A stretch of DNA of 64,000 nt from Mytilus edulis. Lineage: Eukaryota. Every line of letters starts with the position of its first letter. Within the stretch, counting starts at the first letter, position 1. The stretch covers positions 86,862,001-86,926,000 of the forward strand of contig NC_092348.1 in assembly GCF_963676685.1 (NCBI RefSeq), written 5' to 3'. The notes under the pieces are model-generated. The model searched no databases. It saw only the letters and a program-made list of their open reading frames with translations, and had not been told where the DNA came from. Shown here one piece after another: positions 3,479 to 37,400 of this stretch. Made by a program: the position numbers and the translations under genes.

Positions 3479-4154
3479 AAAACTAGACAACAAAGAGAAT
3501 GATACATATTTACCAATGCTGAGTGAGGACGAGGAGGAAGAGGAGGAGGAAGACAAGGCAACATCAGAGAGGTCAGATGAACGAATCATAATGGTGAGCC
3601 ATAAGGAAGTGTTTGACATTGACACTGACGAAGAAGAAACTACCAATATATCACTTAGGGAGAGGGCGGAGAAGCTATTAAAGGCAGGAGGGATGCCCCT
3701 ATTTCCACCAGGGAGGAGACAATGGGCCGGAGAAAGGATGCAGGTGTCGAGTAAACCAACACCAATGTTCTGGCCGCCCAAGGAATGGAGGAAATTGACA
3801 GCGGATCAGAAGCTGACAGCCTGGAGGTTCGCTGCCATGACCTTGGCAAGGGAGCATGGAGTCGACACGGTCAAGGAAGAGAGAGACGTACTTGACAAGT
3901 ATGCCATGCTTGCCTTGCCAGGTACTGCGTTACCTAATCAACCTGGAGAAGACTTGATTATAAAGGCTCGTTTGGCCAATTACCACTTGTTGAAGGATAT
4001 CTGTCTTGGTAAACTGGAAGGAATTGAAGCTTTGGAATTAATAGATATGCTGGAAGCCGCAACCCGATCAAAACCACAAAATGACTTAGTTAAATTATTA
4101 TGTAATGTACCTCTGAGATTGTCAGAAGATGTTAAGAAGGATAAATCGCATTAA
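3405..4154 (+). CDS. Retrotransposon accessory ORF, C-terminal part (probably the same gene as 2417-3478, split by a +1 frameshift)
   Basis: Removing one A from the A7 run at 3434-3440 fuses the frames (AEKKK-PSKPVPIQDSP). Poly-E tract, then a Trp/Pro-rich globular-looking domain (MPLFPPGRRQW...WPPKEW...YAMLALPGT). Confidence 0.7.
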   Translation: MQMSYQQQKRKKPSKPVPIQDSPLKKLDNKENDTYLPMLSEDEEEEEEEDKATSERSDERIIMVSHKEVFDIDTDEEETTNISLRERAEKLLKAGGMPLFPPGRRQWAGERMQVSSKPTPMFWPPKEWRKLTADQKLTAWRFAAMTLAREHGVDTVKEERDVLDKYAMLALPGTALPNQPGEDLIIKARLANYHLLKDICLGKLEGIEALELIDMLEAATRSKPQNDLVKLLCNVPLRLSEDVKKDKSH

Positions 4155-6223: not shown

Positions 6224-9200
6224 CTGTCAATAAAATGAATGTCATAGTAAATTCACCATCACAATCATTAATAAATATTTTCAATTATTAACATGTTTCT
6301 TAATTTTCAATTATTAACATGTTTCTTAATTTTCAATTATTAACATGTTTCTTACTTTTCTGGGAAAGAGAATATAATTACATTAAAGGTAACAAAGAAG
6401 CTTTTGATGTGATGTTTTAAAATATAACTTGGAATTTTTATATCTGGTAAGATATGGTTTTGTTGGAAATTCCTGTGATGATTATATGAACTGCATTTTT
6501 TTTTTAACAAATTTATAGTACACAAAAAAAAGTGACATTTTTTTAGATGTTTAAATTTGGTAAACCTAACTAGAAAGTATATTCAAAAAGTCAAACTTGA
6601 AACTTTGTCAACCAATATAACGAATGAAAAACAACTGTCATATTCCAGACTTGGTATAAACATTACCAATTTCCTATCAAAGCAGACCTACCTTGTTTAG
6701 GACTAAGAATAGGAAATGGATCCCCAATCTTCCAAAAGAAATAAGTAGCTATACACCAAACAGCAAATGTCAATAATACTCTGACATGTTGTTTCTGAGG
6801 TACTGAAAAAAGAAATAATAATGTGAGTCAGGTAAATCATTTTTTCCCCTCCTGTCCCTAAAAGCATACATTCTTTATATTTAAAAAAAATCTCTAAATA
6901 TTTTATCCAAATGTACAGGGCTGTTTTGAATTTCGTAACATTAGCACAGTGGTAAAATATTATTGACATATCACATTTATGTGTGTGCTAAAAATTGAAG
7001 AAAATTGTGTACTTTGAAAAGAAGAAATATTCATTAGTTCATCTTCTGAGGAATTATTCTACATGCAGAACAAACCAATACAGATGAACAGACAAAGATC
7101 ATATTGTATCTCTATTCCAGTATTTCTCGATACATATATTCCAATATATTCCAATAGAAAAAAAGAAAAAAATCTTTCTGATCCTAACAACTTGTGCAAA
7201 TTTACAAGACTAGTCAATATACATGTAGGCTCTCCTGGCTAACTCATGTACTTGATATCATTTAGTTTAATTTTTATTTTAGTTTGCATACTGTAATTTA
7301 TGATATGTGCCTCTCTCTTGCTTTCATATAACTTTTGTATGTCTGTACATATACATTATGTAATATTTATACTGCAACTAGTTGTTTTATTTTCTTAAGC
7401 TATATTTGTGCAATGTCAATTTCATCATGGAACACTTTTTCTACAAACAGAGGTTCATCAAGGGGTGAGAATACATTTGAAATCAAATTTACAATTTAAA
7501 TAGCTATCAATGTGTTAATTTAAGTTGCAGTAGAAAAACAATATTAGGCCAATGTCAGAAAAATATATACTTTTTTGTAATTGGTACAAAACTGGGGAAG
7601 TGCTAGTTAGAACCTTGCCCTTTCCTGGTTTCTCAGCCCCATACAAAAAAGTTTAGATGTTTCTGTATTGACCTAATATTGTGTATGTATTGTGTGTATC
7701 TCTATACCAATGTATTTTGGTTTGTTGAGAAATAATGATATAAATAATAGATTTTCTAATAGTCCATATTCTAATTTTGAAGGTTTTTTTTCCGGGAACC
7801 CAACTTTTTATCAACCATGTTATCAATCAAATGTGTAAGCAATTTTACTTACCAAATTTCAAATTACAAATTATGAAATAAGCAATATAGAATGGTAACA
7901 CTACAATCAACACTGATAATATGGCATATAGCCCTAGTTTCCAATGGAAATATCTGGAGCTGAAATACACAAAACAATCTGTAATTTTTTCTATTAAAAC
8001 AGGAAATATATAAATTTCAATTCAAAATTTTACCAATTTGCCATCTTCAGCAGTTTCTGAGCAAAGGCTTCATTTACAAAGAAAAGATCTTAATCTTTGA
8101 TTTGATTAAAAATTAAAATTTATGAAACCCAAAATCTTTCAGCAATATTATAACTGAGCTTCTGTTGCTTCTCAATCTACTTCTCAAAATGATGCATTCT
8201 AAACTTTCTTAAGATTCAAGAAGTCTGATATCAACAGCATTGTTTCAAAGATAAAGTATAAAAATGTTTTTCTAAAACCTATCTAATGCATAGTTTTACA
8301 CAAAGATCTGTTAATCAAATTCTCATTCAGGTAAATAAATTATTTTATTGTGATGTGTATATTGTGGTAAGTGGTAACAATGGGGCATCAAAGGTTTAGA
8401 ATTGCGAAAAATAGTTACCTCCCCTGCATATGTATCTACCCCTATTAGTCAATTACTACTGAAAATTATTATTAATTTATTAAGTAGACTTTAAAATTTA
8501 GCTGTACAGATGGTTATGTATCATGTGTATGTACTCAATACATTTCTTGGATTTATTTATCACTAATCTGACCTTACATTTAGTCTGATGTGTACTATAT
8601 TTTAAACTTTGCAAGGTACATGTATATATCATTTTTACAACATTCCTACACCCTACCCTGAAATAAGAGTAACAGGACCAACAATAGATTTGTTTTTTTT
8701 GTCAAGACTTACTCTGCATCAAGTACTCCAAGAATTTCAAATATGATCAGTTCAAACATGGTACAGGATAATGAAAATGTCACTGAAAACACTAACAGTA
8801 CAACAGAGTGGTGGACCTGAAACACACAATAATAGGCTTACAATAAGTTCACATGGTACAAGATAATGAAAATTTCACTGAAAACACTAACAGTACAACA
8901 GACGATGGACCTGAAACAGAAAATAATAAGCTTACAATAATGTAACATGGTACAGGACAACAAAAATGTCACAGAAAACAGTAACAGCACAACAGACGAT
9001 GGACCTGAAACACACAATAATAGGCTTACAATAAGTTCTTGGTTCTCTGGTTATAGGTTGTATCATTTGCAATCATACCATATCTTCACATATATATAAT
9101 AGCAATACAATTTGATTTATAGATCATATGTCATATTGTCAAAAAGATACTAAATGAAAGATTAGGCTTTATAAGAGTAATTCAAAGCCTTTAAGGGCAT

Positions 9201-12200
9201 ATAAACCAAAATGAAGCTACTCATTGCACTTATTTAATGTTGGGGTGACAACATCTTTTCTCATGTCAGTGTATGTGGTGACAAATAGGCAATAATGTTA
9301 GTGTATGTGGTGACAAATATGCAGTAATGTCAATGTATGTGGTGACAAATAGGAAAATTCAAATAGGCAAATTTGACAATGTGTGTGGTGAAAAATATGC
9401 AATAATGTTAGTGTATGTGGTGACAAATAGGCAATAATGTCAATGTGATGAATGGTGACAATATCTGCAATTATCTCAATGTGTGTGGTGACAACAAGTC
9501 AATAATGTCCATGTATGTGGTGACAAATAGGCAATTATGTAAATGTTTGTGGTGACAATATCTGCAATTATGTTAATGTATGTGGTGACAATAAGGCAAT
9601 TATGTCAAAGGGTGTGTGGTGACAAATAGGCAATTATGTTAGTGTGTGTGGTGACAAATAAGCAATTATATCAATGAGTGTGTTGACAATATCTGCAATT
9701 ATGTCAATGTGTGTGGTGACAAATAGGCAATTATGTCAATGTGTGTGTAGTAGCAAATAGGCAATTATGTCAATCGGTGTGTGGTGACAAATAGGCAATT
9801 ATGTCAATGTGTGTGTGGTGACAAAAAGGCAATTATGTCAATATGTGTGTGGTGACAAATAGGCAATTAGGTCAATATGTGTGGTGACAATATCTGCAAT
9901 TATGTTAATGTGTGTGGTGACAAATAGACAATTATGTCAATGTCTGTGTGGTGACAAATAGCCAATTATGTCAATGTTTGTGTGGTGACAAATAGGCAAT
10001 TATGTCAATGTGTGTGGTTACAAATAGGCAATTATGTCAATGTGTGTGGTGACAAATAGCCAATTATTCTAATGTGTGTGGTGACAATATCTGCAATTAT
10101 GTAAATGTGTGTGATGACAAATAGGCAATTATGTCAATGTCTGTGTGGTGACAAATAGGCAATTATTTCAATGTGTGTGTAGTGGCAAATATGCAATTAT
10201 GTCAATGTGTGAATGGTGACAAATATGCAATTATGTCAATCAGTGTGTTGACATAATAGGTACTTATGTCAATGTGTGTGATGGCAGCATAGACAATAAT
10301 GTCAAAGTGTGTGGTGACTTAATATGCAATTATGTCAATGCAAGTGGTGACACATCTGCACTTATGTAAATGTTTATGGTGACAACATAGGCACTTGTGT
10401 CAGGATTGTGGTGAGAACATCTGCACTTATGTCAATGTTTGTGGTGACAATATCTGTACTTATGTCAGGGTGTGTGGTGGCAACATAGGCACTTTTGTCA
10501 GTGTTTGTGGTGACAATATCAGCACTTATGTCATTGTGTGTGGTGACAACATCTGTACTAACGTCAATGTGTGTGGTGACAATATATGTACTTATGTCAA
10601 TTTGTGTGGTGACAATATCTTCACTTATGTCAATGTGTGTGGTGACAACATCTGTACTAATGTCAATATATGCGGTGACAACATCTGTACTAATGTCAAT
10701 GTATGTGGTGACAATATATGTACTTATGTCAATGTGTGTGGTGACAATATCTTCACTTATGTCAATGTGTGTGGTGACAATATCTGTACTAATATCAATG
10801 TGTGTGGTGACAATATATGTACTTGTGTCAATGTGGGTGGTGACAAAATCTGCAATTATGTCAATGTGTGTGGTGACAACATCTGTACTAATGTCAATGT
10901 GTGTAGTGACAACATCTGCACTTATGTCAATGTGTGTGGTGACAACATCTGTACTAATGTTAATGTGTGTGGTGACAACATCTATACTAATGTCAATTAG
11001 TGTGGCGACAACATCTGTACTAATGTCAATGTGTGTGGTGACAACATCTGTACTAATGTCAATGTATGTGGTGACAATATATGTACTTATGTCAATGTGT
11101 GTGGTGACAATATCTTCACTTATGTCAATGTTTGTGGTGACAATATCTGTACTTATGTCAGGGTGTGTGGTGGCAACATAGGCACTTTTGTCAGTGTTTG
11201 TGGTGACAATATCAGCACTTATGTCATTGTGTGTGGTGACAACATCTGTACTAACGTCAATGTGTGTGGTGACAATATATGTACTTATGTCAATGTGTGT
11301 GGTGACAATATCTTCACTTATGTCAATGTGTGTGGTGACAACATCTGAACTAATGTCAATGTGTGTGGTGACAACATCTGTACTAATGTCAATGTATGTG
11401 GTGACAATATATGTAATTATGTCAATGTGTGTGGTGACAATATCTTCACTTATGTCAATGTGTGTGGTGACAACATCTGTACTAATGTCAATGTGTGTGG
11501 TGACAATATATGTACTTATGTCAATGTGGGTGGTGACAACATCTGCAATTATGTCAATGTGTGTGGTGACAACATCTGTACTAATGTCAATGTGTGTAGT
11601 GACAAAATCTGCACTTATGTCAATGTGTGTGGTGACAACATCTGTACTAATGTTAATGTGTGTGGTGACAAGATCTATACTAATGTCAATTAGTGTGGCG
11701 ACAACATCTGTACTAATGTCAATGTGTGTGTCGACAACATCTGTACTTATGTCAATGTGTGTGGTAACAACATCTGTACTAATGTCAATGTGTGTAGTGA
11801 CAACATCTGCATTTATGTCAATGTGTGTGGTGACAACATCTGCACTTATGTCAATGTTTGTGGTGACAATATCTTCACTTATGTCAATGTGTGTGGTGAC
11901 AACATCTGTACTAATGTCAATGTGTGTAGTGACAATATCTGCATTTATGTCAATGTGTGTGGTGACAACATCTGCACTTATGTCAATGTTTGTGGTGACA
12001 ATATCTTCACTTATGTCAATGTGTGTGGTGACAACATCTGTACTAATGTCAATGTGTGTGGTGACAACATCTGTACTAATGTCAATGTGTGTGGTGACAA
12101 CATCTGTACTTCAATGTGTGTGGTGACAACATCTGTACTTCAATGTGTGTGGTGACAACATCTGTACTAATGTCAATATGTGTAGTGACAACATCTGCAT

Positions 12201-15200
12201 TTATGTCAATGTGTGTGGTGACAACATCTGCACTTATGTCAATGTTTGTGGTGACAAGATAGGCACTTATGTCAGGGTTTGTGGTGACAATATCTGCAAT
12301 TATGTCAGAATTTGTGGTGACAATATCTGTAATTATGTAAATATGTGTGGTGACAACATAGGCACTTATGTCAATGCTTGTGGTAACAATATCAACACTA
12401 CTCTCAATGTATATGTTGACAACATAGGCAGTTATGTCAATATATTTGACAACATCTGCATTTGTGTTGTTTGAGTTCATTCTAACATAAGTGCTTGTGA
12501 TGACAACACTTGTACTCATGTCAACATCTAGACAGCATTAATGTCAATGTTTGAGGTGACAACATATGTACTTATGTCAAGATATGTGCCAGGTGACAAT
12601 AATTGCCATTGTGTTGGTTGAGGTTATCTGTTTTCCCAGAAACTTCAATAACACCCAAATTTTATAATGATTGGTGCATGCAATCAAACACTACTGAAAT
12701 ATTAATAATGGCAGAAAGAAAACAGAAAGTTAAAAGATTGTTTCTGAAATAGCACTGCATTAAATCATATCTTATTCTTACCTCATAATCCTTGAACAAT
12801 TGCTTTAGAAAGAAAACCCAGCCTCCACCAAAAAATAAAACCTAAAGAAAAAACACATAATATTCAAAACATAAGTTCAACATAAATGTATGCAACTGTA
12901 TAATATTCTTCATTTAAGTAACCCTTACCATGTGGGGATTGTAAGTAAATGACTCCCTCTGATTGCAGGTCCAGGTCAATAACCAGACTAAGCCAAAAAT
13001 CAGGCATTTCAAATGATTTGTTTTTACATTCTCGAATTTTTGGTTGAAATAACCTCCTTAAGACTGTCATACCCAGATCAGTGTCATTCAGATCTAAACA
13101 ATATTGATGGTAAACCATTACATGAGACTACTGAGTTAAAATACATCTATAGGCAAACTTTGGTATTTAAGAGGACACGATAAAGAATGAAAAATCAAAA
13201 TTGATATTCTTGCACCAGATGACTAACTTAGGAGCAGCAATTTTAAAATGTCTCTTTGACATATAGACCCTTGTCACATCTCCTTTATTGCATAAAATGC
13301 ATGTATGATAATGACAATATTACCATAATCTTTATCGAATAAAATTACTTTAAAGAATATTTGTTGGACAACACACTAAAGGTCTTTCAATGCTATGAGT
13401 ATGAAGAGCATTTTGTAATAGAATTCTTTCTTGTGATTCTTACCACATCTTCTAATTTACATATTTATATATACAATGTATCTTAATTGGCCTTTTATTT
13501 TTTTTATTCGAGCCTCACTAATGTGTCTTTAATAAGATCTTGAAAATAAAATGAGCATTTGTGGTTAAAAAAAATTAAGTCAGGTATCTACATATCTGAT
13601 GAGTTTATTGGTCAGTGGTCGGTACCTCAAATGACTGAAGAACACTGTTATTATCAGAATAACACTTGTAGTGAATGAATAACACTTGAAATCTAAAAAT
13701 AGCACATATTAGTGACTTTAAAACGTTGATTTTTAAATAATAGTATATTAATTACCAGGCACAATATATACTCAAGACAAACAAATATATTTCACAGCAC
13801 AGGATAAACACTTGACTATACCAATGACAGTCACATATAAAATGTAGAGTTAATGTTAATGAGCAAATATAGCGTCAAGCCATTAAAAATAATAAATATA
13901 ATCATCCAAACAGATTGAATAAACATATGAGCTAGCCGCAGTATAAACAAGCACATCTTATAAATAAGTACATAGAATACAATAAAATTCATAACTAACA
14001 CAGTTGTATGTGGCGGGTGGGAGGGTAAATAATTTCAATGATAAATTTCAAATGTACCGCGAATCCCAAAACAAAGAAATATATAAGAGCGTCCTGTATC
14101 CAGGTAACAAAGTAACCAATCAAAATAAGGAATACTCGGAACAATTTCTTCCGAGTAAATGTAAACAGTGATTCACGTGGTAATTATCCATTTTTATAAA
14201 ATCAAAAATTACACATAAAGGTTTTTATAACTCAGAAATTATATATAAAAAGCAGGTAAGTTCATAAAGATCGTTATAAATATAGTGTTTACTCCAACAT
14301 GGCGACCAAGGATACCGCATTTATTCAATGCCACATGGTCGCCATGTTGGATGTACAAAAATGTACACACTTATTACACTATATTTATAATGATCTTTAA
14401 AAACTTACCTACTTGCTGTAAATCATTTTTAAGTCAATGTTTAAAAGTCACCAATGTGTGCTCATATTAAATTTGAAGTGTTATTCAGTCATTACAAGTG
14501 TGATTCAGATAAGAACGGTGTTATTCGGTCATTCATGTTACCCATCAGTGGTTGTCATCTTTAAAGTCTATTCAATTACACCTTATCGGCCTTTTCAGCT
14601 ACTGTTAGCTTAAAATTGGTTAAATCTTACTCTAATTCCTCAAAATATCCCTTTGCATCGGAACTAAACACATTTAATTTTTTAAAACAGTTATTGGCAT
14701 GACACGGGTTATGTTCTTCTCATATATTTTATGATAGTATGATACTGAACCCCTAACGGGAGGGATTGTGCCTGATATTCATATGATGAAGACATAATCT
14801 TTCAATCAGTTTAATTGAGGTCTGGAGCTGGCATGGCAGTTAACTGCTAGTAGTCTGTTGTTATTTATGTATTTTTGTCATTTTATTTATTTTCTTTTGT
14901 TACATCTTTTGACATCGGACTCAGACTTCTCTTGAACTGAATTTTAATGTGCGTATTGTTATGCATTTACTTTTCTTCATTGGCTAGAGGTATAGGGGGA
15001 GGGTTGAGATCTCATAAACATGTTTAACCCCGTCGCAATTTTGCGCCTGTCCCAAGTCAGGAGCCTCTGGCCTTTGTTAGTCTTGTATGATTTTTAATTT
15101 TAGTTCCTTGTGTATAATTCGGAGTTTAGTATGACGTCCATTATCACTGTACTAGTATATATATTTTAGGGGCCAGCTGAAGACACCTACGGATGTTGGA

Positions 15201-15786
15201 ATTTTCGCTACATTGGAGACCCATTGGTGGCCTTCGGCTGTTGTCTGCTATATGGTCGGGTTGTTGTCGCTTTGACACATTCCCCATTTCCTTTCTCAAT
15301 TTTATTAAAGATTCCAAAATGATCCCGAAATCTTGATATAAATTTAAATCCTGACATCCCGAAATTCGATAAAAAAATTCCCGAACCTCAAAAGTGTCAA
15401 TCTCAAAATCCCGAGCTTAAAAACACTTGATCCCGGAGTCCCAATAAAGGTCCTATCCCCCCTCACAAAATATTACCGTTAATGATTATGTCATTTGGCA
15501 AGAATTTTTACCATTATTCGTCATGAAAGTATCACCATTACCATCCTGTGGCATAGATTCTAGTCTAAATAATTATGATGGTGTCCCAGAATTTTTTTTG
15601 AAAAAAAAGCCTTGTGCAAGATATCATAATATTTGGACTAGCATACTACATAATTGATCATAATTTGTCAAGTTATGAAGTACCATGAATAATCTATATT
15701 CAATCAACAAGTGTGTAAAGTTCTATCATAAAGATACTTGAAACCTGTGAAAAGAACATCAAACAAGAATCCACTAAAAATGACAT
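6103..15786 (-). CDS. GPR89: Golgi pH regulator GPR89/GPHR, coding exons 1-6 (gene continues left of 6103)
   Basis: Exons 15786-15745, 12841-12782, 8816-8713, 7959-7853, 6802-6692 and 6223-6103, all GT-AG and phase-compatible. They give [34 protein letters not shown]...[16 protein letters not shown]...SRYFHWK...[14 protein letters not shown]...[23 protein letters not shown]. Confidence 0.96.
6279..6356. repeat. Short tandem repeat, ~3 x 26 bp (ttttcaattattaacatgtttcttaa)
   Basis: Three near-identical consecutive units in GPR89 intron 5. Confidence 0.85.
6692..6802 (-). CDS. GPR89: GPR89 coding exon 5
   Basis: [40 protein letters not shown] flanked. Confidence 0.95.
7853..7959 (-). CDS. GPR89: GPR89 coding exon 4
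   Basis: [39 protein letters not shown] flanked. Confidence 0.95.
8713..8816 (-). CDS. GPR89: GPR89 coding exon 3
   Basis: ag|[34 protein letters not shown]|gtaagt. Confidence 0.95.
8756..9038 (-). repeat. 3 x ~94 bp tandem repeat of the GPR89 intron 2 acceptor plus the first ~60 nt of exon 3
   Basis: ggacctgaaaca recurs at 8813, 8907 and 9001; acatggtaca recurs at 8756, 8851 and 8945. Confidence 0.92.
9240..12600. repeat. Minisatellite, ~33-bp unit (tgtgtgtggtgacaacatctgtactaatgtcaa), ~100 copies
   Basis: Continuous array with degenerate ends. It accounts for the [11 protein letters not shown] / [11 protein letters not shown] ORFs. Confidence 0.97.
12782..12841 (-). CDS. GPR89: GPR89 coding exon 2
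   Basis: ag|[20 protein letters not shown]|gtaag. Confidence 0.95.
13613..14550. mobile_element. Non-autonomous DNA transposon with long degenerate TIRs (CACTA/EnSpm-like) and an internal palindrome
   Basis: 13613-13737 is an inverted match to 14427-14550. Termini CA(C/G)TG...CAGTG, flanked by GT on both sides (possible 2-bp TSD). Confidence 0.6.
14683..15305. repeat. Interspersed repeat of unknown class, followed by a MITE-end fragment with ATCCCGA motifs (to ~15464)
   Basis: Ends in gggttgttgtcgctttgacacattcccc, similar to the gagagttgtctcattggcactcataccacatc motif seen at ~17940, ~40150 and, reversed, at ~33140, ~51800 and ~54225. Confidence 0.5.
15745..15786 (-). CDS. GPR89: GPR89 coding exon 1
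   Basis: [14 protein letters not shown] followed by GT. Confidence 0.92.
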
Positions 15787-16414
15787 GATGCTGTGGCTGT
15801 AGACTTGGGATCTCCCCTCTGTTCCAACGTCAACATAAACACGTGTCTTTGAAGGGTGACACGAGAAAGGTTCCGAACGGTACAATCATCCCAAATGATA
15901 GGAATAACGCAAATTGTGATTGGATATTGAGCGAACGTCTTATCATTATCATTTTCGTGTTGTATTTTTTTTTAAATCGTCGTCTTTAGAACAATTTGTC
16001 TTCGTTTACAATAAAATTATATTATTTTAAGGTGAAGATTTGAATATTAATAATAAGACTCTAAAAACTTCATGAAATTCATATTTTTCTTTGTTTCGCC
16101 TTAAGAATATTGTCCAATTAAAACATGTCTTTCAAAAGAATCTAAGCATCCATTTGGGGAAGCCCCTACAGCAGCCATGATAATCACGATGGGAAACTTG
16201 CGATTGTCAACATTGGACATGATTTAATGCATACATGTTTTATGAGCCAAACCTATATATTTCATTTGAATGAGATTTATTTACTTTTGTTGTCTTATTG
16301 TATAAAAGATATTTCAGTAGCATTCATGGGGAATTAGCTGCATGTTTTGCTGTGACTGAAATCTTGAGACAAATTCTTGTCCATCAGAGCCAACTTGAGA
16401 CACACGTGTGAACT
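15787..16414. promoter_or_regulatory. Putative bidirectional promoter and 5' UTRs of GPR89 and USP25/28
   Basis: The two start codons are divergent and only 628 bp apart. Confidence 0.65.
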
Positions 16415-16459
16415 ATGACAGTTAAACAACCACCATTGCCTCAGCCATGTCATTCACAG
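16415..16459 (+). CDS. USP25: USP25/28 exon 1
   Basis: [15 protein letters not shown]|gt. Confidence 0.8.
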
Positions 16460-19400
16460 GTCAGAATTTTATCAGGAAATTTTACTTTTTGATTGAATTA
16501 TAACAGTAGAGCATTCTCCTCCTTATCAAATTTTAAGGAAATTAACCACTTACCTCTATGCGATTATGGCTTTATATTTATCTATACTATAGTCCAGACC
16601 ACTCTCTAGCTAAGGTCAAAAAGTGCTTTACCTAGCTGACTGATTATGGCTGGCTAAGTATTTAAGTATCTATTACTCCAGTGAATGCGGTCACACTTTC
16701 CCCTTTCCCCACCTGGAGCAGAGTCATTTTAACCTTAGACAGTTCTAAAACTGCTGACATTCATCATCAATCATGTCCCAAAGACTTTTGAATTTGTACA
16801 CTTTCTCTTAAATATCCTATGTCTAAATGCTTTAACTATTACTTCACAGTAAGACCTCTGGAACACATACATGTACTTAAAAAACTTGTAGATGGTGTAT
16901 TTATACATGTATGACTCTTGACAGAACTCAAACAATTGGATAGATATCATCTTTTACATCTTATACTTGTATATTTAAGATATATTTAATGTGTACATCT
17001 ACATTGTTAAACTTATAGAATTGTTGCTCAATTAATTTTATCACTGAAATAGTTCATGGTTTCCCTTTATGTCCTGTATCAAATCACGAAGTAAAGTACT
17101 GAACATCATAGTACTGCAAGTATTGATGAAAGGTCACAGGCATTTGTCTCAGAAAAAAATTATATCTCTATACCTGATAGTTACATGTGGGTTCAGTTAC
17201 ATAGATTTTTTTTTTACTGAGACAAGTTCCTCTGTGCATGATGAATAAATAACGGGGAATTCAACATCACCATTATTATTATTATATTGCAGTGATACAA
17301 AGTATAATCATTTGTTATATGTATATTTTTTGTTGTTATTATCTTATACATGTATTAATATTTATATAACAGTTTAATATATATATATATAGCAGATCCA
17401 TTATTCCGCATGTGTTTACACAAACTTTTGGTATTCATGATTATTAATGTTACATACTGATATATATTTCTCATGACAAAACATTTTCATATCATTTTAT
17501 TCATTTATCTAAAAGACTTAGTTCTAAAAGCTACATTTTGTACTATACAGTGTATTATATTAGATCATCAGGTTAAGTGACAGTGATATCAGTGTATATG
17601 TATCATGAGAATAGACAGTTTTTGTGTATTTCAGGGAAGAAAACAGGATGAACTTTTGACAGTGTGTAACCAGATAAAGGAAATTACAGGAATACATGAT
17701 GAAAAAGTGATAAAGCGAGCTATTGATGCTTGTCAAGATGAAAATGGACAGTTTAATGTAGAAAATGTTGTGGCAATGTTGGTGGCTGAAGACAGCCAAG
17801 TAACCAACAGTCCTCCTAAAAAGGTAAACATTTTAAAAAATACATGTTTTTTAATGGCTGTTTGGTGTGAGCCAAGGCTTTGTGTTAAAGACGTTATTCT
17901 GACCTATATTGGTTTACTTTTACAAATTGTGACTTAGATGGAGAGTCGTCTCATTGGCATTCATACCACATCTTCTTATATCTATTCAATAATCATATGT
18001 TCATGAAAACTTTATATTGGCGCATAAACTTTTTATGCCCCACCTACGATAGTAGAGGGGCATTATGTTTTCTGGTCTGTGCCTCCGTTCGTTCGTCCGT
18101 TCGTTCGTCCGTCTGTGCGTCCGTTCGCTTCAGGTTAAAGTTTTTGGTCGAGGTAGTTTTTGATGAAGCTGAAGTCCAATCAACTTGAAACTTGATACAC
18201 ATGTTCCCCATGATATGATCTTTCTAATTTTAATGCCAAATTATAGTTTTGACCCCAATTTCATGGTTCACTGAACATAGAAAATGATAGTGCAAAGTTC
18301 AGGTTAAAGTTTTTGGTCAAGGTAGTTTTTGAAGAAGTTAAAGTTACATCAACTTGAAACTTAGTACACATGTTCCCTATGATATGATCTTTCTAATTTT
18401 AATTCCAAAGTTTTGACCCCAATTTCATGGTCCACTGAACATAGAAAATGATAGTGCGAGTGGGGCATCCGTGTACTATGGACACATTCTTGTTATGCCC
18501 CACCTACGATAGTAGAGGGGCATTATGTTTTCTGGTCTGTGCCTCCGTTTGTTCGTCCGTCTGTGCGTCCGTTCGCTTCAGGTTAAAGTTTTTGGTCGAG
18601 GTAGTTTTTGATGAAGCTGAAGTCCAATCAACTTGAAACTTGATACACATGTTCCCCATGATATGATCTTTCTAATTTTAATGCCAAATTATAGTTTTGA
18701 CCCCAATTTCATGGTTCACTGAACATAGAAAATGATAGTGCAAAGTTCAGGTTAAAGTTTTTGGTCAAGGTAGTTTTTGATGAAGTTAAAGTTACATCAA
18801 CTTGAAACTTAGTACACATGTTCCCTATGATATGATCTTTCTAATTTTAATTCCAAAGTTTTGACCCCAATTTCATGGTCCACTGAACATAGAAAATGAT
18901 AGTGCGAGTGGGGCATCCGTGTACTATGGACACATTCTTGTTAGAATTTGTTTTGACCATAAATTATTTTGAAATACAATAGTTGCTCATGTTGCACAAC
19001 TAAAAAGATAATAATGCCATTGTACCACATAATTACTATCATTAAATGTTAACCAATATATATATTCATGACTTTCTTTATACTTTAATTGCAGTCAACT
19101 GTGAATCCGTTACCTCCAAGGACGACAGCTGCAGATACATTAGATGCTAAAGGGAAACCAGGCACTGATTCTACAGCTACACAATCAACAGAAACACAGT
19201 CAACCAGTACAAATAAAAGTCAAGGTATAATTTGTCATTCCCATTTTATTCATTCCAATCAAAAAACTTAAAAGGAAATTAAATAAGTAACACATCTTAT
19301 AAGAATTCTATTCTGCATTACTAATTAAATGCAAAGGAATATAACACCATGCAGTGACATTGTGGAGAGTATGATTTTAAATGTCCATCAGCCAGTAGAG

Positions 19401-22400
19401 TCCTCTAGTCACTTTATATTGACCTGCATAGCTAGTCCTTTCACTATTTATAGTTAGATCCCCTTATAGTTTGAAAGACATTTTTGTGATGTCTGCAAAT
19501 ACTTAGATACTCAAGTATTTCTTGGTAATTCAGTAATCTGTTTCCTGTTACCATGTAAGATATTATCTACTTTCTTTTCATAAAAATTAATTTGCATGTA
19601 CATCAAACAAAAATAGTAAATCTATATAAAAAAAACCCCAGAAAGAGTGCTTTTACTGTGACATATATTTAAGAATATGACAAATTTCTTTGATGTAATC
19701 AACACTTTGTTTGTAAACATGCTTTGTATTTAAAACTCTTTTGATATGAACAACAGGTGTCATAGACTTGACAACAGAAACAAATGAAAGTGACGAACTA
19801 CAGAAAGCAATCGCCGCCAGTCTTCAAGATACACAGGGAATTCTGGGAGGTCAGGTTTCAAAGGAAGAACAGGATATAAGCAGGTTATTTATGAACTGCA
19901 GAAATCTATAAGTTATATAAAAAGCTGGGTTGCTGTCTCATTGACCCACTTCCTAAATCTCTATTTATTTATAATTGATGAACTACGGAAGACTTAATGA
20001 TTCAATTGTATTGCTTGTTATCTAATGTTCTTTATTCTCAATAATAAAACCTCAACCTCAATGTTTTGCTACATGTTCTCATTTAAATAATGATGTAATT
20101 TTTTGATTGAAGAAACCAGTGTATGTAATGTTTTACACAAATCTTTCTTGTACTTTTCAGAGTGTTAGAACAAAGTTTAATAGAAAGTAAAGCTGGGACA
20201 AAACGGAAAAGAGGTGATATATGGTTTGTAGACCCACTTAATCCTCATGAAAGGAAGAGACTAGAAGAATGTCCTGTTGGTTTAAAGAATGTGGGAAATA
20301 CCTGTTGGTTTAGTGCCGTAATACAGGTAATCATACTTACCTGTTGTTTTAGTACTTTTATACTGGTAATCATATTTGCCTGTTGGTTTAGTGCTGTTAT
20401 ACTGGTAATCATATTTACCTGTTGGTTTAGTGTTGTTGTACTGGTAATCATATTTACCTGTTGGTTTAGTGCTGTTATACTGGTAATCATATTTACCTGT
20501 TGGTTAAGTGCTGTAATACAGGTACTCATATTTACCTGCTGGTTAAGTGCTGTTATACAGGTAATCAGATTTACCTGCTGGTAAAGTGCTGTAATACAGG
20601 TAATCAAGAGTATAAAGGTTGAAAAATGCTTGTTTAAATTGAAAACACCTTCAAGACTCTATCAAAATGACCTGGTGTTTTGTACAGACTTTCAGATCTT
20701 GTTATCTGTAAGTATATTTAAAACATTTATTTGACATTCCAGGCTTGCATCTCTGCCCACTTCTGATAAATATTTACCCAAGAAAGAACTTCAAAATCAA
20801 AGAAAACATTTCAGACATTATTTTGAAAAGATTAATTGTTACCTGGAATCTTCATTTGAATTGGCAAAGTTTTTAAATCTTAGTTTAGATTAGCATACAT
20901 TAATGACTAAATGTGGTGAATTTGGAGTATACAAAGTAACAATAATAACATAAACCAGAAGTAATAATTGTGTCACTTTGCGACTTGTATAAGTGAAGGA
21001 TATAATCTGGTAACATTAACATGGTGGTATTCAACATCCACATTAGGAAGATCCAACTGTGGAAGCAAAATCCATCTAACAGAAACATAGTCTCTGAAGC
21101 TACGTAATTTCTTTTATTGGTATGAGTAATACAATAGAAATATATCCATTTTATCATTTCAGTCTTTATTTAATCTCAGAAGATTTCGACATTTGGTGCT
21201 TAACTTCAAACTACCTAAAGATCCTGCACAGGTAAGACAATTAGATGATGTATAAGTAGTGATAAGGGTAATACATGTATTAAAGTACAACCTGATAATC
21301 TACCAATGTAAGCCTGTTAGTTAACCCTCAAAAGGTGCCCTATACCATATATTCAACTTTTTATACGACCGCAAAATTGAAAAAATTTTCGTCGTATATT
21401 GCTATCACGTTGGCGTCGTCGTCGTCGTCGTCGTCGTCGTCCGAATACTTTTAGTTATCGCACTCTAACTTTAGTAAAAGTGAATGGAAATCTATGAAAT
21501 TTTAACACAAGGTTTATGACCACAAAAGGAAGGTTGGTATTGATTTTGGGAGTTTTGGTTCCAACATTTTAGGAATTAGGGGCCAAAAAGGGCCCAAATA
21601 AGCATTTTCTTGGTTTTCGCACTATAACTTTAGTTTAAGTTAATAGAAATCTATGAAATTTTGACACAAGGTTTATGACCACAAAAGAACGGTTGGGATT
21701 GATTTTGGGAGTTTTGGTTTCAACAGTTTAGGAATTAGGGGCCAAAAAAGGGCCCAAATAAGCATTATTCTTGGTTTTCGCACAATAACTTTAGTTTAAG
21801 AAAATAGAAATCAATGAAATTTAAACACAATGTTAATGACTACAAAAGGAAGGTTGGTATTGATTTTGGGAGTTTAGGTCCCAATAGTTTAGGAATTAGG
21901 GGCCAAAAAGGGACCCAAAATAAGCATTTTTCTTGGTTTTCGCACCATAACGTTAGTATAAGTAAATAGAAATCTATGAAATTTAAACACAAGGTTTATG
22001 ACCATAAAAGGAAGGTTGGTATTGATTTTGGGAGTTTTGGTCCCAACAGAATAAGGGGCCCAAAGGGTCCAAAATTAAACTTTGTTTGATTTCATCAAAA
22101 TTGAATAATTGGGGTTCTTTGATATGCCGAATCTAACTGTCATGACTGTGTATGTAGATTCTTAACTTTTGGTCCCGTTTTCAAATTGGTCTACATTAAG
22201 GTCCAAAGGGTCCAAAATTAAACTTAGTTTGATTTTGACAAAAAATGAATCAGTTAGGTTCTTTGATATGCTGAATCTAAAAATGTACTTAGATTCTTGA
22301 TTATTGGCCCAGTTTTCAAGTTGGTCCAAATCGGGGTCCAAAATTAAACTTTGTTTGATTTCATCAAAAATTGAATAAATGGGGTTCTTTGATATACCAA

Positions 22401-25400
22401 ATCTAACTGTGTATGTAGATTCTTCATTTTTGGTCCTGTTTTCAAATTGGTCTACACTAAAGTCCAAAGGGTCCTAAATTAAACTTAGTCTGATTTTAAC
22501 AAAAATTGAAATCTTGGGGTTCTTTGATATGCTGAATCCAAAAATGTACTTATAGATTTTTATACGACCGCAAAATTTGAAAAAATTTTCGTCGTATATT
22601 GCTATCACGTTGGCGTCGTCGTCGTCGTCCGGCGTCCGAATACTTTTAGTTTTCGCACTCTAACTTTAGTAAAAGTGAATGGAAATCTATGAAATTTTAA
22701 CACAAGGTTTATGACCACAAAAGGAAGGTTGGTATTGATTTTGGGAGTTTTGGTCCCAACATTTTAGGAATTAGGGGCCAAAAAGGGCCCAAATAAGCAT
22801 TTTCTTGGTTTTCGCACTATAACTTTAGTTTAAGTGAATAGAAATCTATGAAATTTTGACACAAGGTTTATGACCACAAAAGGAAGGTTGGGATTGATTT
22901 TGGGGGTTTTGGTTCCAACAGTTTAGGAATTAAGGGCCAAAAAAGGGCCCAAATAAGCATTATTCTTGGTTTTCGCACAATAACTTTAGTATAAGTAAAT
23001 AGAAATCAATGAAATTTTAGCACAAGGTTTATGACCACAAAAGGAAGGTTGGGATTGATTTTTGGAGTTGAGGTCACAACAGTTTATGAATTAGGGGCCA
23101 AAAAGGGGCCCTATTAAGCATTATTTTTGGTTTTTGCACCATAACTTTAGTATAAGTAAATAGAAATCTATGAAATTTAAACACAAGGTTTATGACCATA
23201 AAAGGAAGGTTGGGTTTGATTTTGGGAGTTTTGGTCCTAACAGTTTAGGAATAAGGGGCCCAAAGGGTCCAAAATTGAACTTTGTGTGATTTCATCAAAA
23301 ATTGAATAATTGGGGTTCTTTGATATGCCGAATCTAACTATGTATGTAGATTCTTAATTTTTGGTCCCGTTTTCAAATTGGTCTACATTAAGGTCCAAAG
23401 GGTCCAAAATTAAACTTAGTTTGATTTTAACAAAAATTGAATCCTTGGGGTTCTTTGATATGCTGAATTTAAAAATGTACTGAGATTTTTAATTATTGGC
23501 CTAGTTTTCAAGTTGGTCCAAATGGGGGTCCAAAATTAAACTTTGTTTGATTTCTTCAAAAATTGAATAAATGGGTTCTTTGATATGCCAAATCTAACTG
23601 TGTATGTAGATTCTTAATTTTTGGTCCAGTTTTCAAATTGGTCTACAATAAGGTCCAAAGGGTCCAAATTAAACTAAGTTTGATTTTAACAAAAATTAAA
23701 TTCTTGGGCTTATTTGATATGCTTTATCTAAATATGTACTTTGATTTTTGATTATGGGCCCAGTTTTCAAGTTGGTCCAAATCAGGATTCCATATCAAGT
23801 ATTGTGCAATAGCAAGAAATTTTCAATTGCACAGTATTGCACAATAGCAAGAAATATCTAATTGCACAATATTGTGCAATAGTAATTAATTTTCAATTGG
23901 AGTTATCTTTCTTTGTATAGAATAGTAGTTGATAATATATGTTGGAAATTTGCCAGACATGACTATGATGTCATTTTCTATTTTTATTTGCCAATAACTT
24001 TATGTAAATAACTTCATTGGAAATTTGCCAATATAAAATGTTGCTGATGAAGCTTTTTTTCCTTATCTTATCTAAAATGTTTTAGATAATGTATGTTGGA
24101 AATTTGCCAGACATGACTATGATGTCATTTTCTATTTTTATTTGCCAATAACTTTATGTAAATAACTTCATTGGAAATTTGCCAATATAAAATGTTGCTG
24201 ATGAAGTTTTTTTTATTGTTTTATACAATAAACAATGTATATTCACTTTTACTACCAACCAATCTTTACCATTCAGTGATAACAAGCACTTTATTTTACA
24301 TTTTAATATTTTATGATGTATTTAAAAGAGTAGTTATTGTTGCAAACTCCATTAGAAATTTGAATTGATATCAGTTTTGGAAAAAGGGAAACGGGGATGT
24401 GAAAAAAGGGGGGGGGGGGGGGGTTAAATTTTTCTCATTTTAGATTTCATAAATAAAAAGAAAATTTCTTCAAACATTTTTTTGAGAGGATTAATATTCA
24501 ACAGCATAGTGAATTGCTCAAAGGCAAAAAAAAAACTTTTAAGTTCATTAGACCACATTCATTCTGTGTCAGAAACCTATGCTGTGTCAACTATTTAATT
24601 TTAGATTTAAATAAGAAGAAATCTTTAATTGATTTGTAAAATCTTGACATTTGTTTTGTGTAAAAAAAAACATGTAATGTCAAAAATTTGATCACAATCC
24701 AAATTCAGAGCTGTATCACGCTTGAATGTTTTGTCCATACTTGCCCCAACTGTTCAGGGTTCGACCTCTGCGGTCGTATAAAGCTGCGCCCTGCGGAGCA
24801 CCTGGTTTATTATGGGCCCAGTTTTCAAGTTGGTCCAAATCAGGATCCAAAATTATTATATTAAGTATTGTGCAATAGCAAGTCTTTTCAATTGCACAGT
24901 ATTGCGCAATGGCAAGAAATATCTAATTGCACAATATTGTGAAATAGCAAAATTTTTTTTAATTAGAGTTATCTTTCTTTGTCCAGAATAGTAAGCAAGA
25001 AATATCTAATTGCAAAATATTGTGCAATAGCAAGATTTTTTTTTAATTGGAGTTATCTTTCTTTGTCCAGAATCAACTTAAATCTTTGTTATATACAATA
25101 TACAATGTATATTCACTTTTTACTACCAACTGATAAATTAAAATAATCTTTACCATTCAGTGATAACAAGCAGTTTTTTTACATCTTAATATTTTATGAT
25201 GTATTTAAATGAGTAGTTATTGTTGCAAACTCCATTAGAAATTTTAATTGAGATTAGTTTTGGAATAAGGGAAAGGGGGATGTGATTAAAAAAATTGGGT
25301 TCAATTTTTCTCATTTGAAATTTCATAAATAAAAAAGAAAATTTCTTCAAACATTTTTTTGAGAGGATTAATATTCAACAGCATAGTGAATTGCTCTAAG

Positions 25401-31400: not shown

Positions 31401-34400
31401 AATTTAGGAACAGTATCTAAAACAAATTTGGTATTGTTTGAAAATGTATACATTTATTGTAGATACAGAAACACCCACAGTCAATCAGCCGTCATTCTTG
31501 ACTTTGTTAGTATAATGAGAAAAGAATTTGATGAAACAACACATAAACAAAGATTTGTTTTGACATGATAAAATATATTCATCCTCATCAAACTTCAAAC
31601 CTTGTGTCTATTTTCCACAAACTTTGCTTTCTTTTATCCTGTTAAATTTTCATTTAGTGGTATACAATTGAAATATTCATTCATTTGGAATATTTGTAGG
31701 ATTACAAGAAAACATAAATTCCTTAGAAGAAGCTATAAATAGACAGTATGGGGATGAGGCCATGAGAAAGGTAAAATACACAAACAATTCTCTTATTTTA
31801 AAAAGTAATATTATTTATTGAAAAGACAGTACTCACGCTCGAAATTGAAAGGAATCAGGTGCCTCTCTGGGACTAGTACATAAAAAAACCAGATCATTTT
31901 GATTTGAAAATTTTAGGAATAAACTAGAATTGACATCTAACCTAGTTTGATGGTGGTAGAATTGTTTTGCAGTATATTTGTCACTATTATTTCTTAACTT
32001 ACATGGATTGAAGAGTTCTTCTGACGATACACATGAAATTGATTTTCCAGTCAATGACCATTGTTTTGATTTACGACATTCTTTTTCATCAAGGGTTTTA
32101 CCTCAGATTATCTTTGAACACCGTGATCTGTGATTCTTTTTTGGAAAAATTGCAATAGTCCAGCGGCTGACTTTGAAAAATTGAGATTCAACTTGATTAT
32201 CTTGATAATGGAGAAAATGTTAAGCCTATAAATGGATTTTTTATATTTTGTTGAGGACATAAAAATATGTTGAAATTCATATATGATATAGGCGAGATGA
32301 AATTTCTATAGAATGCACAATAAAACTCATGCCAAGGGAGATAATTTTGGTAACATTCCATACAAACTATTGTAAAATGCATGACTTATCTGTTACGGTT
32401 AGTATGGAAAAGAATACTCAATTTGAGTACATAATTTCTTTTTCTTTATTATAGTAAGCTACTTTATTAAAGAATTTGAAGATTTGACATTTAATCATGA
32501 TCTAATATATAGTAATGTTTAGTTGATAGTTTTAGCCAGTTATAGGCAGTCATTTCCTGTTTGACTGGAACTATTTTACAATCTATAATAATCAGTGGGG
32601 GTTTACTTTGCACATTATCTTATACAACATAGCCATATCTAAATTGTGCAATCCCATGTGCAACTCCTTGTTTACATTACACAACTTTTGTAGCCATATT
32701 GAGCCTGCCATTTTTATCTTTTATTTTTCAGTGTCCTTATCATTTGCATGCTGTACTTGTCCATGAAGGACAAGCTGCTTCTGGACATTACTGGGCATAT
32801 ATTTGGTCGTTAACGAAATGGTTGAAATTTAATGACATATCAGTGACTGATGCATCATGGGATGATTTAGTAAAAGAAAGTGTGGGTGGATTTCATAACG
32901 CTAGTGCTTATTGTTTAATGTATGTGGATAAATCAAAATTAGAGGCAGAAGGTAGATTTTGTTTTGTAGTACATTTATACATATATACTAAGACATAGGA
33001 ATTATAAGTTACTTATTGACCATTTAATAACATGGTTAATTGGTGAGCATTTGTAGAAAGATAATATAGCTTTAAAATGTAATAAAGTAAAAAATCAAAC
33101 AGTTTGATTTTGAAGAATCAATATAAAAATAAGGAGATGTGGTATGATTGCCAATGAGACAACTATTCATTAGAGTTAAAACATGAAGTAGATATAAGCA
33201 ATTAACGGTCACTATATGGTCTTCAACAATTAATAAAACATAAATTGTATAGTCAGCAATAAAAGACAGAAAACGTGAAACATTCAAACCAGCAAAATAA
33301 TCACCTAATTTATATGAATAATAATTTACAAAAAAAAAATGAATGTAAAAGACATGAACAGGAAGCTGACTTGGTACAGGTATATAAAGAAATTTGTTGG
33401 GTTCAACATGTTTATTAGTGCTCAACCCTCTCCAAACCGTGGACATTTGTGTAATAGCACTGAATAAGAACACTTTAAATTTTGGTTTCTGTTCCCTTTC
33501 TTAAGTGTGCTTCAATCAAATGTCATGAAACTTATGCATAATGCTTATTACCTCAAAACTAAGATCAAGTACAAATTTTGTAGCATAACTTTTACAATTC
33601 TTGAGTTATTTTCCTTTATTACAGTATATAGTATATCGTCTGTGTCCCCATTTATTAATTCTGTTATGTTTTATTGAAATAGAATCCTAATGATTCTAAA
33701 AAGTTCTTCTACATTAATATTATTAGTGCTTAGGTCTTGTAAGGAATTACCATAAAAGCTATGTATATAACTAATTTTGTACCTGAAATTGATTAGAATG
33801 TACTGAACTATTGTTCTTATTGTTAATATTTGTACAGAAGAAAGCTGTGATAATGATGTTCTACCTGATGACTTAAAGGAACAGGTGTTAGAGGACAATA
33901 ATAAATTTGACCAGGAAATAGACGACTGGGACAAAGAACAGGCCAGAAAAGCTCTTGGTGCTGGTGATGGTGATTGTACTATAACTGGGGAAACAAAACC
34001 TAGTAAGTATCAGGAACAGGCCAGGAAAGCTCTGGGTGCTGGTGATGGTGATTGTACTATAACTGGGGAAACAAAACCTGGTAGGTATCAGGAACAGGCT
34101 AGAAAAGCTCTGGGTGCTGGCGATGGTGATTGTACTATAACTGGGTAAACAAAACCTGGTAGGTATCAGGAACAGGCTAGAAAAGCTCTGGGTGCTGGCG
34201 ATGGTGATTGTACTATAACTGGGAAACAAAACCTAGTAGGTATCAGGGACAGGCTACAAATTCTCTGGGTGCTGGTGATGGTGATTGTACTATAACTGGG
34301 GAAACAAAAACCTGGTAGGTGTAAGCTACAGGCCAAAAAAGCCCTGGGTGCCGGTGATTGGGATTGTACTATACCTAGGGAAACAAAACTTGGTAAGTTT

Positions 34401-37400
34401 CAGGAACAGGCCAGAATTTATTAGGATGCTGATTTAACAATGTTCAGGGAAAGTCAGAAAAGCCCTAGGCACCAGTGATGGTGATTGTACTATAACTAGG
34501 GAAACAAAATCTGAAAGTATCAAAGACGGGTTTAGATAGCTAAAGGTGCTTGGGAGGCTTATTGCAGTGTTACAAGGGAAAAGCCAGATAAGTTTAGAGA
34601 CAAACAGAATGTCATTTATAACAGAATGGGGGAACAAAGCCTGACTAGGAGAAGCAAGAAAATAATTTTTTGCTGTTAAAGTATCTTCTGATAAAACATG
34701 TTATTCATTTGTATACATTTAAGAATGAAAATGATTTGTATTCCTTTCAGGTCCCAGTACAAGTTCAGTAGCCACACAGACACAGGTTCCTAGCAATAAA
34801 AATTTTAACCAGGAAGTGACATTAGCTGTGACTCATGCTTTTTTATCAGCTCCAGAAACATACCAGGCTGCCAACACAGCCTTAGGTCAGGAAACCATTC
34901 AGTTTGATGGACCAGCTGTTCTTACAATTGTAAGTCAAATAGATATACTAATCCTAATATATTAGAAATCTTATTTATAGACTCCAATGATCAAGGGAGG
35001 TAATTCTGATTGTGCCCCCTTTATATATCAAGTAATGGATATTTTGCCACATGTTGGCAAATTAGGGATCATATCAATATAAATGCATTTTACCAACCAT
35101 TTCCACAGGGGATTTTTCATGAATTTTATATATCCTCATGTAAAATAGAATAGAACCATTCTTATATTCTGTGCTTACCACAAAGTGCCTAAGCAATGAT
35201 CTGTTTTATCTTACAGCATAACAACTCAAATCTGGTTGTGAAGGAACAAGCTATTGTTTTCAGTAGTAATTCATATTGAGGTTACAAGCATTTCACAGAA
35301 AAGAACTGACATATTATTTCTTTCAGTTGATCAAGTTTTATATATTGCCTAACATTTTTTAGTTGTTTTTCACAAAATTGTGAATTAATAAAACAGACAA
35401 TCAAAAAATGATTTAAAGATGAACTCTTTTAATTTTGATATTAAGAATAGATGCAGCTTAAGATACATGGCATACTTCAATCAACAAATGATTTATAAAA
35501 TTTATCCAACTAGTAAGAATTGGTTTTATTGCATGAGTGATTAGTGAAATATACTTTCTCTTATTTTTGTGCTATTTTCACACTTCCAGACCCGTGTCAG
35601 AAAAATATTTCTCCTCGCTAGTAAAATCTGTTCTCGGCAAATGATTGGTTGATATTAAATTGTGACGTTTCTTGTTTTCTTCTGAATTTTCTTATTGTGA
35701 CGTCATGAACAAAGGTGACCATGCCTGATGACGTCTCATCAAAAGTACACAAATTTCCTCAAATCTTGGAAAAGGAACTAAAAAAATCATAAGAGAAACA
35801 GATTCCACCACTGTAACTCATGTATAACAATATTTCTCCACTCTCAACAGTTAAATTTTAATTATTTAAAAAGCTCTGCAAGCCTCAAGCTTCAAATATT
35901 AAAATTTAAATGTCTGGAGTGGAGATATATTGTAATACGCTTGTTGCAGTTGTGGAATCTATATATACCACATATATTTATTTTATATTGAAAACTTGTG
36001 TTAATTTTCCAGGTGATAGAAAATGAACTGCAAAGACTTGATCAAATAGTAAAACAGTTACCTAAGTTGTTACCTAAAGATGATCAACGATTATTGCATC
36101 CTGTGATATATCTAAAAGCATGCCATGCCCCCAGGGACGTGGTACACAAATTTATGCTGGAACAGTTTTCCCTTTGTACTCTTTTAACACAAAATGATAA
36201 GTAAGTTTGAGAAAATGGCATTTATAATATTCCCTATATCTTATCTGAATTAAATTCATGCTACGGTTTTGAGGAACAGTGAATGTTTTGTTAATTTGAC
36301 ATACTGCTATTCAGAAATTATTGCATGCATGTATTATTGCAATTTTTGTCAATTAAGATTATAATGCAACTTTAATTTTTGCGATATTTAGAAAAATCTT
36401 GTTTAATTCAAATAGAAAATTTTAAAATGTGAGTTTAAATTATTGTAATTATAACCCTGTCACATTTTTCACAATAATAAAAACATTGCAATAATTTCTG
36501 AATATACAGTACTATGATGTCAATCTTATCTCCTTGCTAGCAAAATATGACATTAATTATCCCCCTTGTATTTACCTATCAAAGTCTGGCATTTTGACAT
36601 GAAGTAAAATAATACTAGATAGAGCAGCAGTATTATCATCTTAAATGTAACATTGTTTTTGTCGTAACTTAATATATTTGTATATTCAGCATTTTATTTT
36701 ACTTTTCAGATGTAAAAGATTATTACTTTCAGCGACTGCAGAACTTAAACAAAGACAGAAAGGTTTAGAAAAAGATGAAATCATGATTTTGGTAGGTATT
36801 ATTATAAACAAACAAGGAAACATTGACCTTCAGGATGCTAGAAGTAAATACTTGATTTTTATGCTCCACCTACGATAGAAGAGGAGCATTATATTTTCTG
36901 GTCTTGGGATCCATCCATTCGTCCGTCTGTTTGTCCATCTGTCCCACTTCATGATAAAGTCTTTGGTTCAGTTATTTTTTATACGACCGCAAAAATTTTA
37001 ATTTTTTTGTCGTATATTGCTATCACGTTGGCGTCGTCGTCGTCTTCGTCGTCCGAATACTTTTAGTTTTTGCACTCTAACTTAAGTAAAAATGAATAGA
37101 AATCAATGAAATTTTAACACAAGGTTTATGACCACAAAAGGAAGGTTGGGATTGATTTTGGGAGTTTTGGTCCCAACATTTTAGGAATTAGGGGCCAAGA
37201 TGGGCCCAAATAAGCATTTTCTTGGTTTTCGCACTATAACTTTAGTTTAAGTGAATAGAAATCTATGAAATTTTGACACAAGGTTTATGACCACAAATGG
37301 AAGGTTGGGATTGATTTTAGGAGTTTTGGTTCCAACAGTTTAGGAATTAAGGGCCAAAAAAGGGCCCAAATAAGCATTATTCTTGGTTTTCGCACAATAA

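Follow-up and report, generated by a model that had tools for sequence, protein, structure and literature searches.

Tandem arrays across exon-intron junctions of GPR89 and USP25 in Mytilus edulis and their excess at splice junctions of motor-protein genes

Why should three tandem arrays in two neighbouring genes each lie exactly across an exon-intron junction? We addressed this question for a 64,000-nucleotide stretch of the Mytilus edulis genome (NC_092348.1, positions 86,862,001 to 86,926,000; hereafter the window, to which plain positions refer), in which GPR89 (Golgi pH regulator) and USP25 carry such arrays. A reading of the sequence alone had placed arrays, with units of exon edge, splice site and a little intron, on GPR89 exon 3 and USP25 exons 5 and 17, and had posed a junction-biased mutational process and a selective filter as alternative causes. 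Tandem Repeats Finder (TRF) and the anatomy of the units agree with this description, and the gene identities and exon numbers are correct. The arrays are mirage-type minisatellites as already described in amphioxus; what is new is a measured excess at splice junctions and a donor-acceptor asymmetry, both from hand-curated data on three gene families. On balance we consider it probable that these exon-edge copies are neutral minisatellites that arise, last or expand more readily with exon sequence, and that they survive because splicing keeps to the exon-side site.

Anatomy of the three arrays

All three arrays consist of head-to-tail units, and every unit straddles a boundary between exon and intron in the host gene. 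Array 1 (8755..9035, minus strand; TRF 94 bp x 3.0) covers the acceptor of GPR89 coding exon 3 (8713..8816, minus strand; placed by tblastn of P0138), its unit combining the first 62-63 nt of the exon with 31 nt of intron. Array 2 (20299..20606, plus strand; TRF 39 bp x 7.9, eight copies) covers the donor of USP25 coding exon 5 (20161..20326, plus strand). This exon terminates in the Cys box, the Cys of which we take to be catalytic from general knowledge of the USP family, and the unit comprises the last 28 nt of the exon, including the Cys codon, and 11 nt of intron. Array 3 (33936..34520, plus strand) lies at the donor of USP25 coding exon 17 (33838..34002, plus strand), with a unit of 67 nt of exon and 11 nt of intron; TRF delimits it at 33936-34416 (78 bp x 6.2), followed by a decayed seventh copy at 34452-34520. 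In each case the terminal copy is the true exon edge and the others are intronic, as protein matches stop at copy 1 in the donor arrays and begin at the last copy in the acceptor array.

The unit sequences are unrelated, as had been claimed: each matches only its own array in the window and in 1.6 Mb of further genome, and a genome-wide search, made for array 3 only, returned a single location. These local-only matches rule out a transposon origin of the units. Every unit is an uninterrupted stretch of the genome in which exon-exon joins are lacking. In arrays 1 and 3 the two ends of the unit share 5-6 bases (GAACT and CAAAGA, read from decayed joints), which suggests that a template switch may have provided the seed. 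The true end of exon 17 at 34002 is A (Ser), as it is in the models of both M. edulis and M. galloprovincialis, and most intron copies of array 3 keep G (Gly), like the other three species; array 3 thus seems to be older than this substitution.

Read support was examined for arrays 1 and 3 in DNA run X4, from a different sample and study, and in X10, which carries a different organism label. For array 1, X4 contigs (8821-8891 and 8875-9029) cross both copy joints; X10 spans the first joint and leaves 8896-8987 almost uncovered. Across array 3 the depth rises to 224-413 in X4 (surroundings ~90) and to 64-72 in X10 (surroundings ~30, with a gap at 34278-34404), with partial contigs in both runs. 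The crossed joints and raised depth in the independent X4 run exclude, for these two arrays, the assembly artefact that the sequence-only reading had considered. Short-read contigs break at the arrays, and those of X4 and X10 yield no copy numbers. In the case of array 2, the mussel-like proteins P0001, P0136 and P0137 run from exon 5 directly into the sequence that follows the eighth copy, indicating that a one-copy state exists.

Excess of arrays at splice junctions

The sequence-only reading had also implied an enrichment of arrays at junctions. This was observed in a 1.8 Mb sample of motor-protein genes, the first part of which comprises 22 dynein heavy-chain genes (1.6 Mb) with exons annotated by paralog comparison; 781 of 925 consecutive exon pairs were phase-consistent. 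TRF arrays with a unit of at least 15 bp touched an exon in 79 cases, of which 65 were kept by hand as junction-spanning and 14 were dropped (exonic, merely adjacent, false exon or unclear). Intron copies had registered as extra exons in the homology annotation, and removal of the array-internal calls reduced 950 exons to 918. The clean set also has 895 introns, together 1.05 Mb long; arrays lying entirely within them number 322, of which 193 are unique and 129 derive from dispersed repeats. In the window itself, dispersed elements with units of 161 bp and 135 bp and a tandemly doubled 448-bp element occur at 21370-23780, 37066-38200 and 18029-18943; such elements inflate a naive background of intronic tandem repeats.

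As null we used the probability that the terminal unit of an intronic array contains a junction, which gives 8.7 arrays per side for the 193 unique arrays (Monte Carlo mean 8.4, maximum 17). The 65 junction arrays (44 donors, 21 acceptors) thus exceed the expected 17.4 by 3.7-fold, with donors ~5-fold above the unique-intron rate and units of 60-120 bp enriched 8.2-fold (39 versus 4.7). A strict overlap rule gives 54 versus 11.9, omission of the two richest genes 2.9-fold, and a bootstrap over gene regions an interval of 2.2-5.3. Against the intronic null, the class of junction arrays is beyond chance. It occupies 63 of 895 introns (~7%), and its rate is uncorrelated with the local rate of intronic arrays (21 regions, rho 0.30, P = 0.18). 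The distribution among genes is uneven: two neighbouring dynein genes (G000:C3:95831001-96001000) have arrays at ~17% of exons and four other genes have none. The longest examples, each nearly 6 kb, are a donor array of 64 bp x 87 (G000:C8:41770025-41775593) and an acceptor array of 78 bp x 75 (G000:C3 near 43853900-43859770).

A second sample drew on 68 kinesin and myosin loci, of which 63 were used; four nearly intronless matches and one duplicate were left out. Among its 185 exons, 12 of the 16 arrays near exons span a junction (3.0 expected), and 10 remain when one array repeated between paralogs and one borderline case are set aside (P = 0.001). An identical 60-bp donor array occurs in two paralogous myosin genes (myo04 and myo05; G000:C10 near 50242000 and 50289000), present in 2 and ~17 copies. 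Long open frames that had been indicated for the myosin matches were not seen on translating three loci.

The three arrays in the window are ordinary for this genome: measured against its own rate of 65 per 918 exons, their number has P = 0.16 for 20 exons and P = 0.38 for 31 exons, and a hot spot unique to this window is rejected.

Splice-site use and the shape of the arrays

The splice signal (AG or GT) is kept in 2/2 extra copies of array 1, 7/7 of array 2 and 5/6 of array 3. The real acceptor of array 1, before 8816 (10.8 bits), is accompanied by intact decoys before 8910 (13.1 bits) and 9004 (10.8 bits), either of which, with read-through, would shift the frame. Array 2 has GT donors at 20327 (real), 20366, 20405, 20444, 20483, 20522, 20561 and 20600, the last two equalling the score of the real donor (8.6 bits), and its reading frame is open to copy 7, with a stop within copy 8. 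In array 3 the real donor at 34003 scores 7.1 bits, and the decoys 9.6 (34081, 34159 and 34315), 5.4 (34236) and 7.8 bits (34393); its second donor would insert 26 residues in frame, and a stop is present in copy 3.

The exon-side splice site is used in every covering Mytilus protein model. The Mytilus USP25 cluster has 18 members, 15 of which we compared, and a repeat insert was absent from all models covering exon 5 (13) and exon 17 (15). At the latter junction, the seven models from M. edulis and M. galloprovincialis have KPS, corresponding to copy 1 (A before GT) rather than to copies 2, 3 and 5 (G), even though these three copies outscore the used donor (9.6 versus 7.1 bits). Likewise, no repeat insert was found in the 11 of 16 GPR89 proteins that span the joint of exons 2 and 3, all of which take the exon-side acceptor. 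The raw RNA runs X22 and X24 contain zero reads over any USP25 exon and hence are silent on decoy use; a GPR89 RNA contig (run X16) splices 8713 to exon 4 at 7959 and stops at 8799, 17 bases before the acceptor, and PacBio run X18 has no cover on GPR89 exons. A decoy that equals the real site in strength is retained by 33 of 43 donor arrays and by 14 of 20 acceptor arrays. Among decoy GT dinucleotides, 11 of 324 positions differ, compared with 390 of 7462 in the exon portion of the copies. GT and AG decay no faster than the remainder of the unit, and selective erosion of decoys is rejected.

The sequence-only reading had proposed that the arrays form batteries of competing splice sites, and had taken the 3n length of both donor units in the window as a hint. 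The copies do keep intact signals; no protein model uses one, and the 3n hint fails in the larger sample. Unit lengths of 3n occur in 25 of 65 junction arrays (17/44 donors, 8/21 acceptors) compared with 65 of 193 intronic ones, so that selection for 3n units is rejected. It is very improbable that copies are kept for in-frame protein variants or for tuning expression via unproductive splicing. The 3n donor units, the frame of array 2 that stays open for six extra copies and the strength of many decoys would fit such a role. Set against it are the absent 3n bias, the unused decoys, the up to 78 residues that array 2 would place beside the catalytic Cys, the absence of array 2 from other mussel-like DNA and the differing read cover of arrays 1 and 3 between runs.

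The marks of a filter are plain in the distribution of the arrays. Arrays of at least 40 bp lying wholly within exons number 0, against 9.4 expected, and donors outnumber acceptors by 52 to 25 (P = 0.003). Relative to uniform placement, acceptor units with 18-40 nt of intron are in excess (13 versus 6.4) and those with less than 18 nt in deficit (3 versus 6.5), a pattern that would follow if the real acceptor has to retain its pyrimidine tract and branch region. Selection can only remove copies, however, and donors stand ~5-fold above the neutral intron rate; a further bias linked to the exon must thus act on array formation, survival or expansion. Filter and bias are both needed, and the two causes that the sequence-only reading had opposed are not alternatives. 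GC content as the chief cause of the excess is rejected, as it accounts for 1.2-fold.

Only units that cross the junction show the excess. Per 100 kb, units of at least 40 bp number 3-14 beside a junction, 56-58 across a donor and 26-28 across an acceptor, and arrays that adjoin a junction without crossing it show no clear rise, albeit with small counts. This confinement, together with the short intron part of donor units (28 versus 18.4 expected with at most 25 nt) and the 18-40 nt preference of acceptors, could point to a spliceosome or RNA-DNA hybrid at the splice site that sets one breakpoint. We regard such splicing-coupled mutation as quite unlikely. Uniform placement is rejected for donor units, but a rate simply proportional to exon share matches their skew (mean 0.66 versus 0.67), selection for an intact 3' signal matches the acceptor pattern, and exon-exon joins are absent from the units in the window.

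Origin of the excess and relation to known systems

Expansion provides the strongest signal. For units of at least 40 bp, enrichment is 8.1-fold in arrays exceeding 2.5 copies and 3.2-fold in two-copy arrays, the expanded share being 38/56 at junctions and 29/62 in introns (P = 0.026); it is highest in multi-copy arrays of high identity (15 versus 1.0). The excess might instead reflect survival only, with even formation, fast turnover of intron interiors and slower divergence of exon-tied copies, which would stay detectable for longer. Older two-copy arrays are indeed enriched 3.7-4.0-fold compared with 1.7-fold for the youngest, the exon part of copies differs from the real unit by 5.2% compared with 8.9% for the intron part, and large indels are common in mussels according to the accessible text of PMC7653742. 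Arrays less than 100 bp from a junction should then also be sheltered, yet they are not clearly raised (small counts). Identity is equal at junctions and in introns (93% versus 94%, units of at least 40 bp), and the abundance of high-identity multi-copy arrays indicates active expansion. We therefore consider survival by itself an unlikely account.

Exon chromatin might also supply the bias: nucleosomes or gene-body CpG methylation would raise nicking and repair synthesis, seeds would start in exons, and the same filter would act afterwards. The exon-weighted rate matches the donor geometry, and the CpG observed/expected ratio of 0.26 in exons versus 0.41 in introns is the expected residue of methylation. 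Acceptor-side exon edges with arrays are richer in CpG (0.0155 versus 0.0081 per base, P = 0.004, n = 21), and PMC8355091 reports tandem duplication at the ends of DNA breaks. The acceptor result is one among several tests, however; donor edges, the larger class, differ in neither CpG nor GC (P = 0.74 and 0.63), and it is expansion rather than the young two-copy seeds that is clearly enriched. A chromatin origin has, in our estimation, a minor chance of being correct.

The neutral, exon-linked course that we favour would proceed in steps. A seed duplication of 30-120 bp, probably the product of a template switch at a handful of shared bases, would be expanded and homogenised by unequal exchange. 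Exon-internal copies would be purged, donor copies would be nearly free since the first donor is used, and acceptor copies would persist mainly when the unit brings its own pyrimidine tract and branch region. The excess itself would originate in the exon. As its cause we tentatively prefer, at somewhat less than even chances, that divergent mussel homologues pair at conserved exons, where exchanges start and amplify the edge overhang. We favour homologue exchange because expansion gives the strongest signal and mussels are highly polymorphic; the accessible text of PMC7653742 gives a heterozygosity of 1.73%, with 36.78% of a reference hemizygous.

Several observations weigh against this interpretation. 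With all 322 intronic arrays as background the excess falls to 1.9-fold, and acceptors alone are then not significant (21 versus 17.3, P = 0.22). The two neighbouring dynein genes contribute 24 of the 65 arrays, the junction calls were hand-curated (65 of 79) on our own exon annotation, and the enrichment derives from three motor-protein families (1.8 Mb). The youngest two-copy class (3 versus 1.75; interval for the 1.7-fold ratio 0.35-5.0) is not significantly enriched, so that more frequent seed formation at junctions cannot be claimed. A comparison of exact microhomology, unusable for about half of the arrays, showed no clear difference. Splice-site use was deduced from database protein models, the source genomes of which may or may not carry the arrays.

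GPR89 (exons 1-6, minus strand) and USP25 (24 coding exons, plus strand) are arranged head to head, with starts ~630 bp apart (15742-16465); records of Pomacea and M. coruscus show consecutive locus numbers, a hint that the pairing may be conserved. Most exons in the window match an M. edulis model at 94-100%; for USP25 exon 5 the match to M. californianus stands at 96%. The ~30 exons that the sequence-only reading had counted in 26 kb correspond to the coding exons of the whole window (30); 8756-34520 contains 20, namely GPR89 1-3 and USP25 1-17. GPR89 intron 2 also harbours a 33-bp minisatellite of ~94 copies (9377-12467, 3.1 kb), entirely intronic and not junction-seeded, with an akin 32-bp stub at 9263-9353. 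Beyond GPR89 exon 6 (300-4150) lie long frames that by eye resemble a putative long terminal repeat retrotransposon integrase, and a second open frame.

The accessible text of PMC3087553 and PMC3902484 reports amphioxus mirages at Adh3, the globins BflGb6 and BflGb9, troponin C and PGBD5, with variable copy number and normal splicing, and calls their origin unclear. As in the mussel, the intron-exon boundary is in tandem at donors and acceptors (10-160 bp units there) and most AG/GT are retained. These accounts, as far as accessible, treat single loci and give no rate; the present case concerns a mollusc and provides a rate (63/895 introns), a null and arrays of up to 87 copies. In the human F7 intron 7 37-bp variable number tandem repeat (VNTR), the first unit spans the donor, 5-9 near-identical donors follow and only the most upstream is used (PMC1557585, accessible part). 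Array 2 (39 bp x 8) shares this layout, and F7 is one human locus tested by minigene, whereas the mussel arrays are known from sequence and protein models; several array 3 decoys, unlike the near-identical F7 donors, outscore the real one. Intron gain by internal tandem duplication (Rogers model; Zhuo et al. 2007; Gao and Lynch 2009; as cited in the accessible text of PMC3087553) likewise draws donors and acceptors from duplication over splice signals, but the mussel gene structures are unchanged in the models, with no new intron or exon. Our literature search, which had most subscription papers outside its reach, found no mollusc mirage and no genome-wide enrichment test. The CBS VNTR offers a further parallel, and somatic instability is said to affect the amphioxus Adh3 mirage.

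Mirages have previously been single-locus oddities. A rate of 63/895 introns and a 3-4-fold excess imply that tolerance alone is insufficient, and make their origin testable across species. The arrays are also a practical trap for homology annotation and short-read contigs. It is conceivable, if doubtful, that exons act as islands of homology in hyper-polymorphic animals, and that recombination anchored on them continually seeds and amplifies repeats of exon edges. If this is true, ~7% of mussel introns would be furnished with decoy splice sites of their own, offering thousands of natural tests of splice choice and a standing raw material for intron gain, and mirage load would be predicted to scale with heterozygosity across species.

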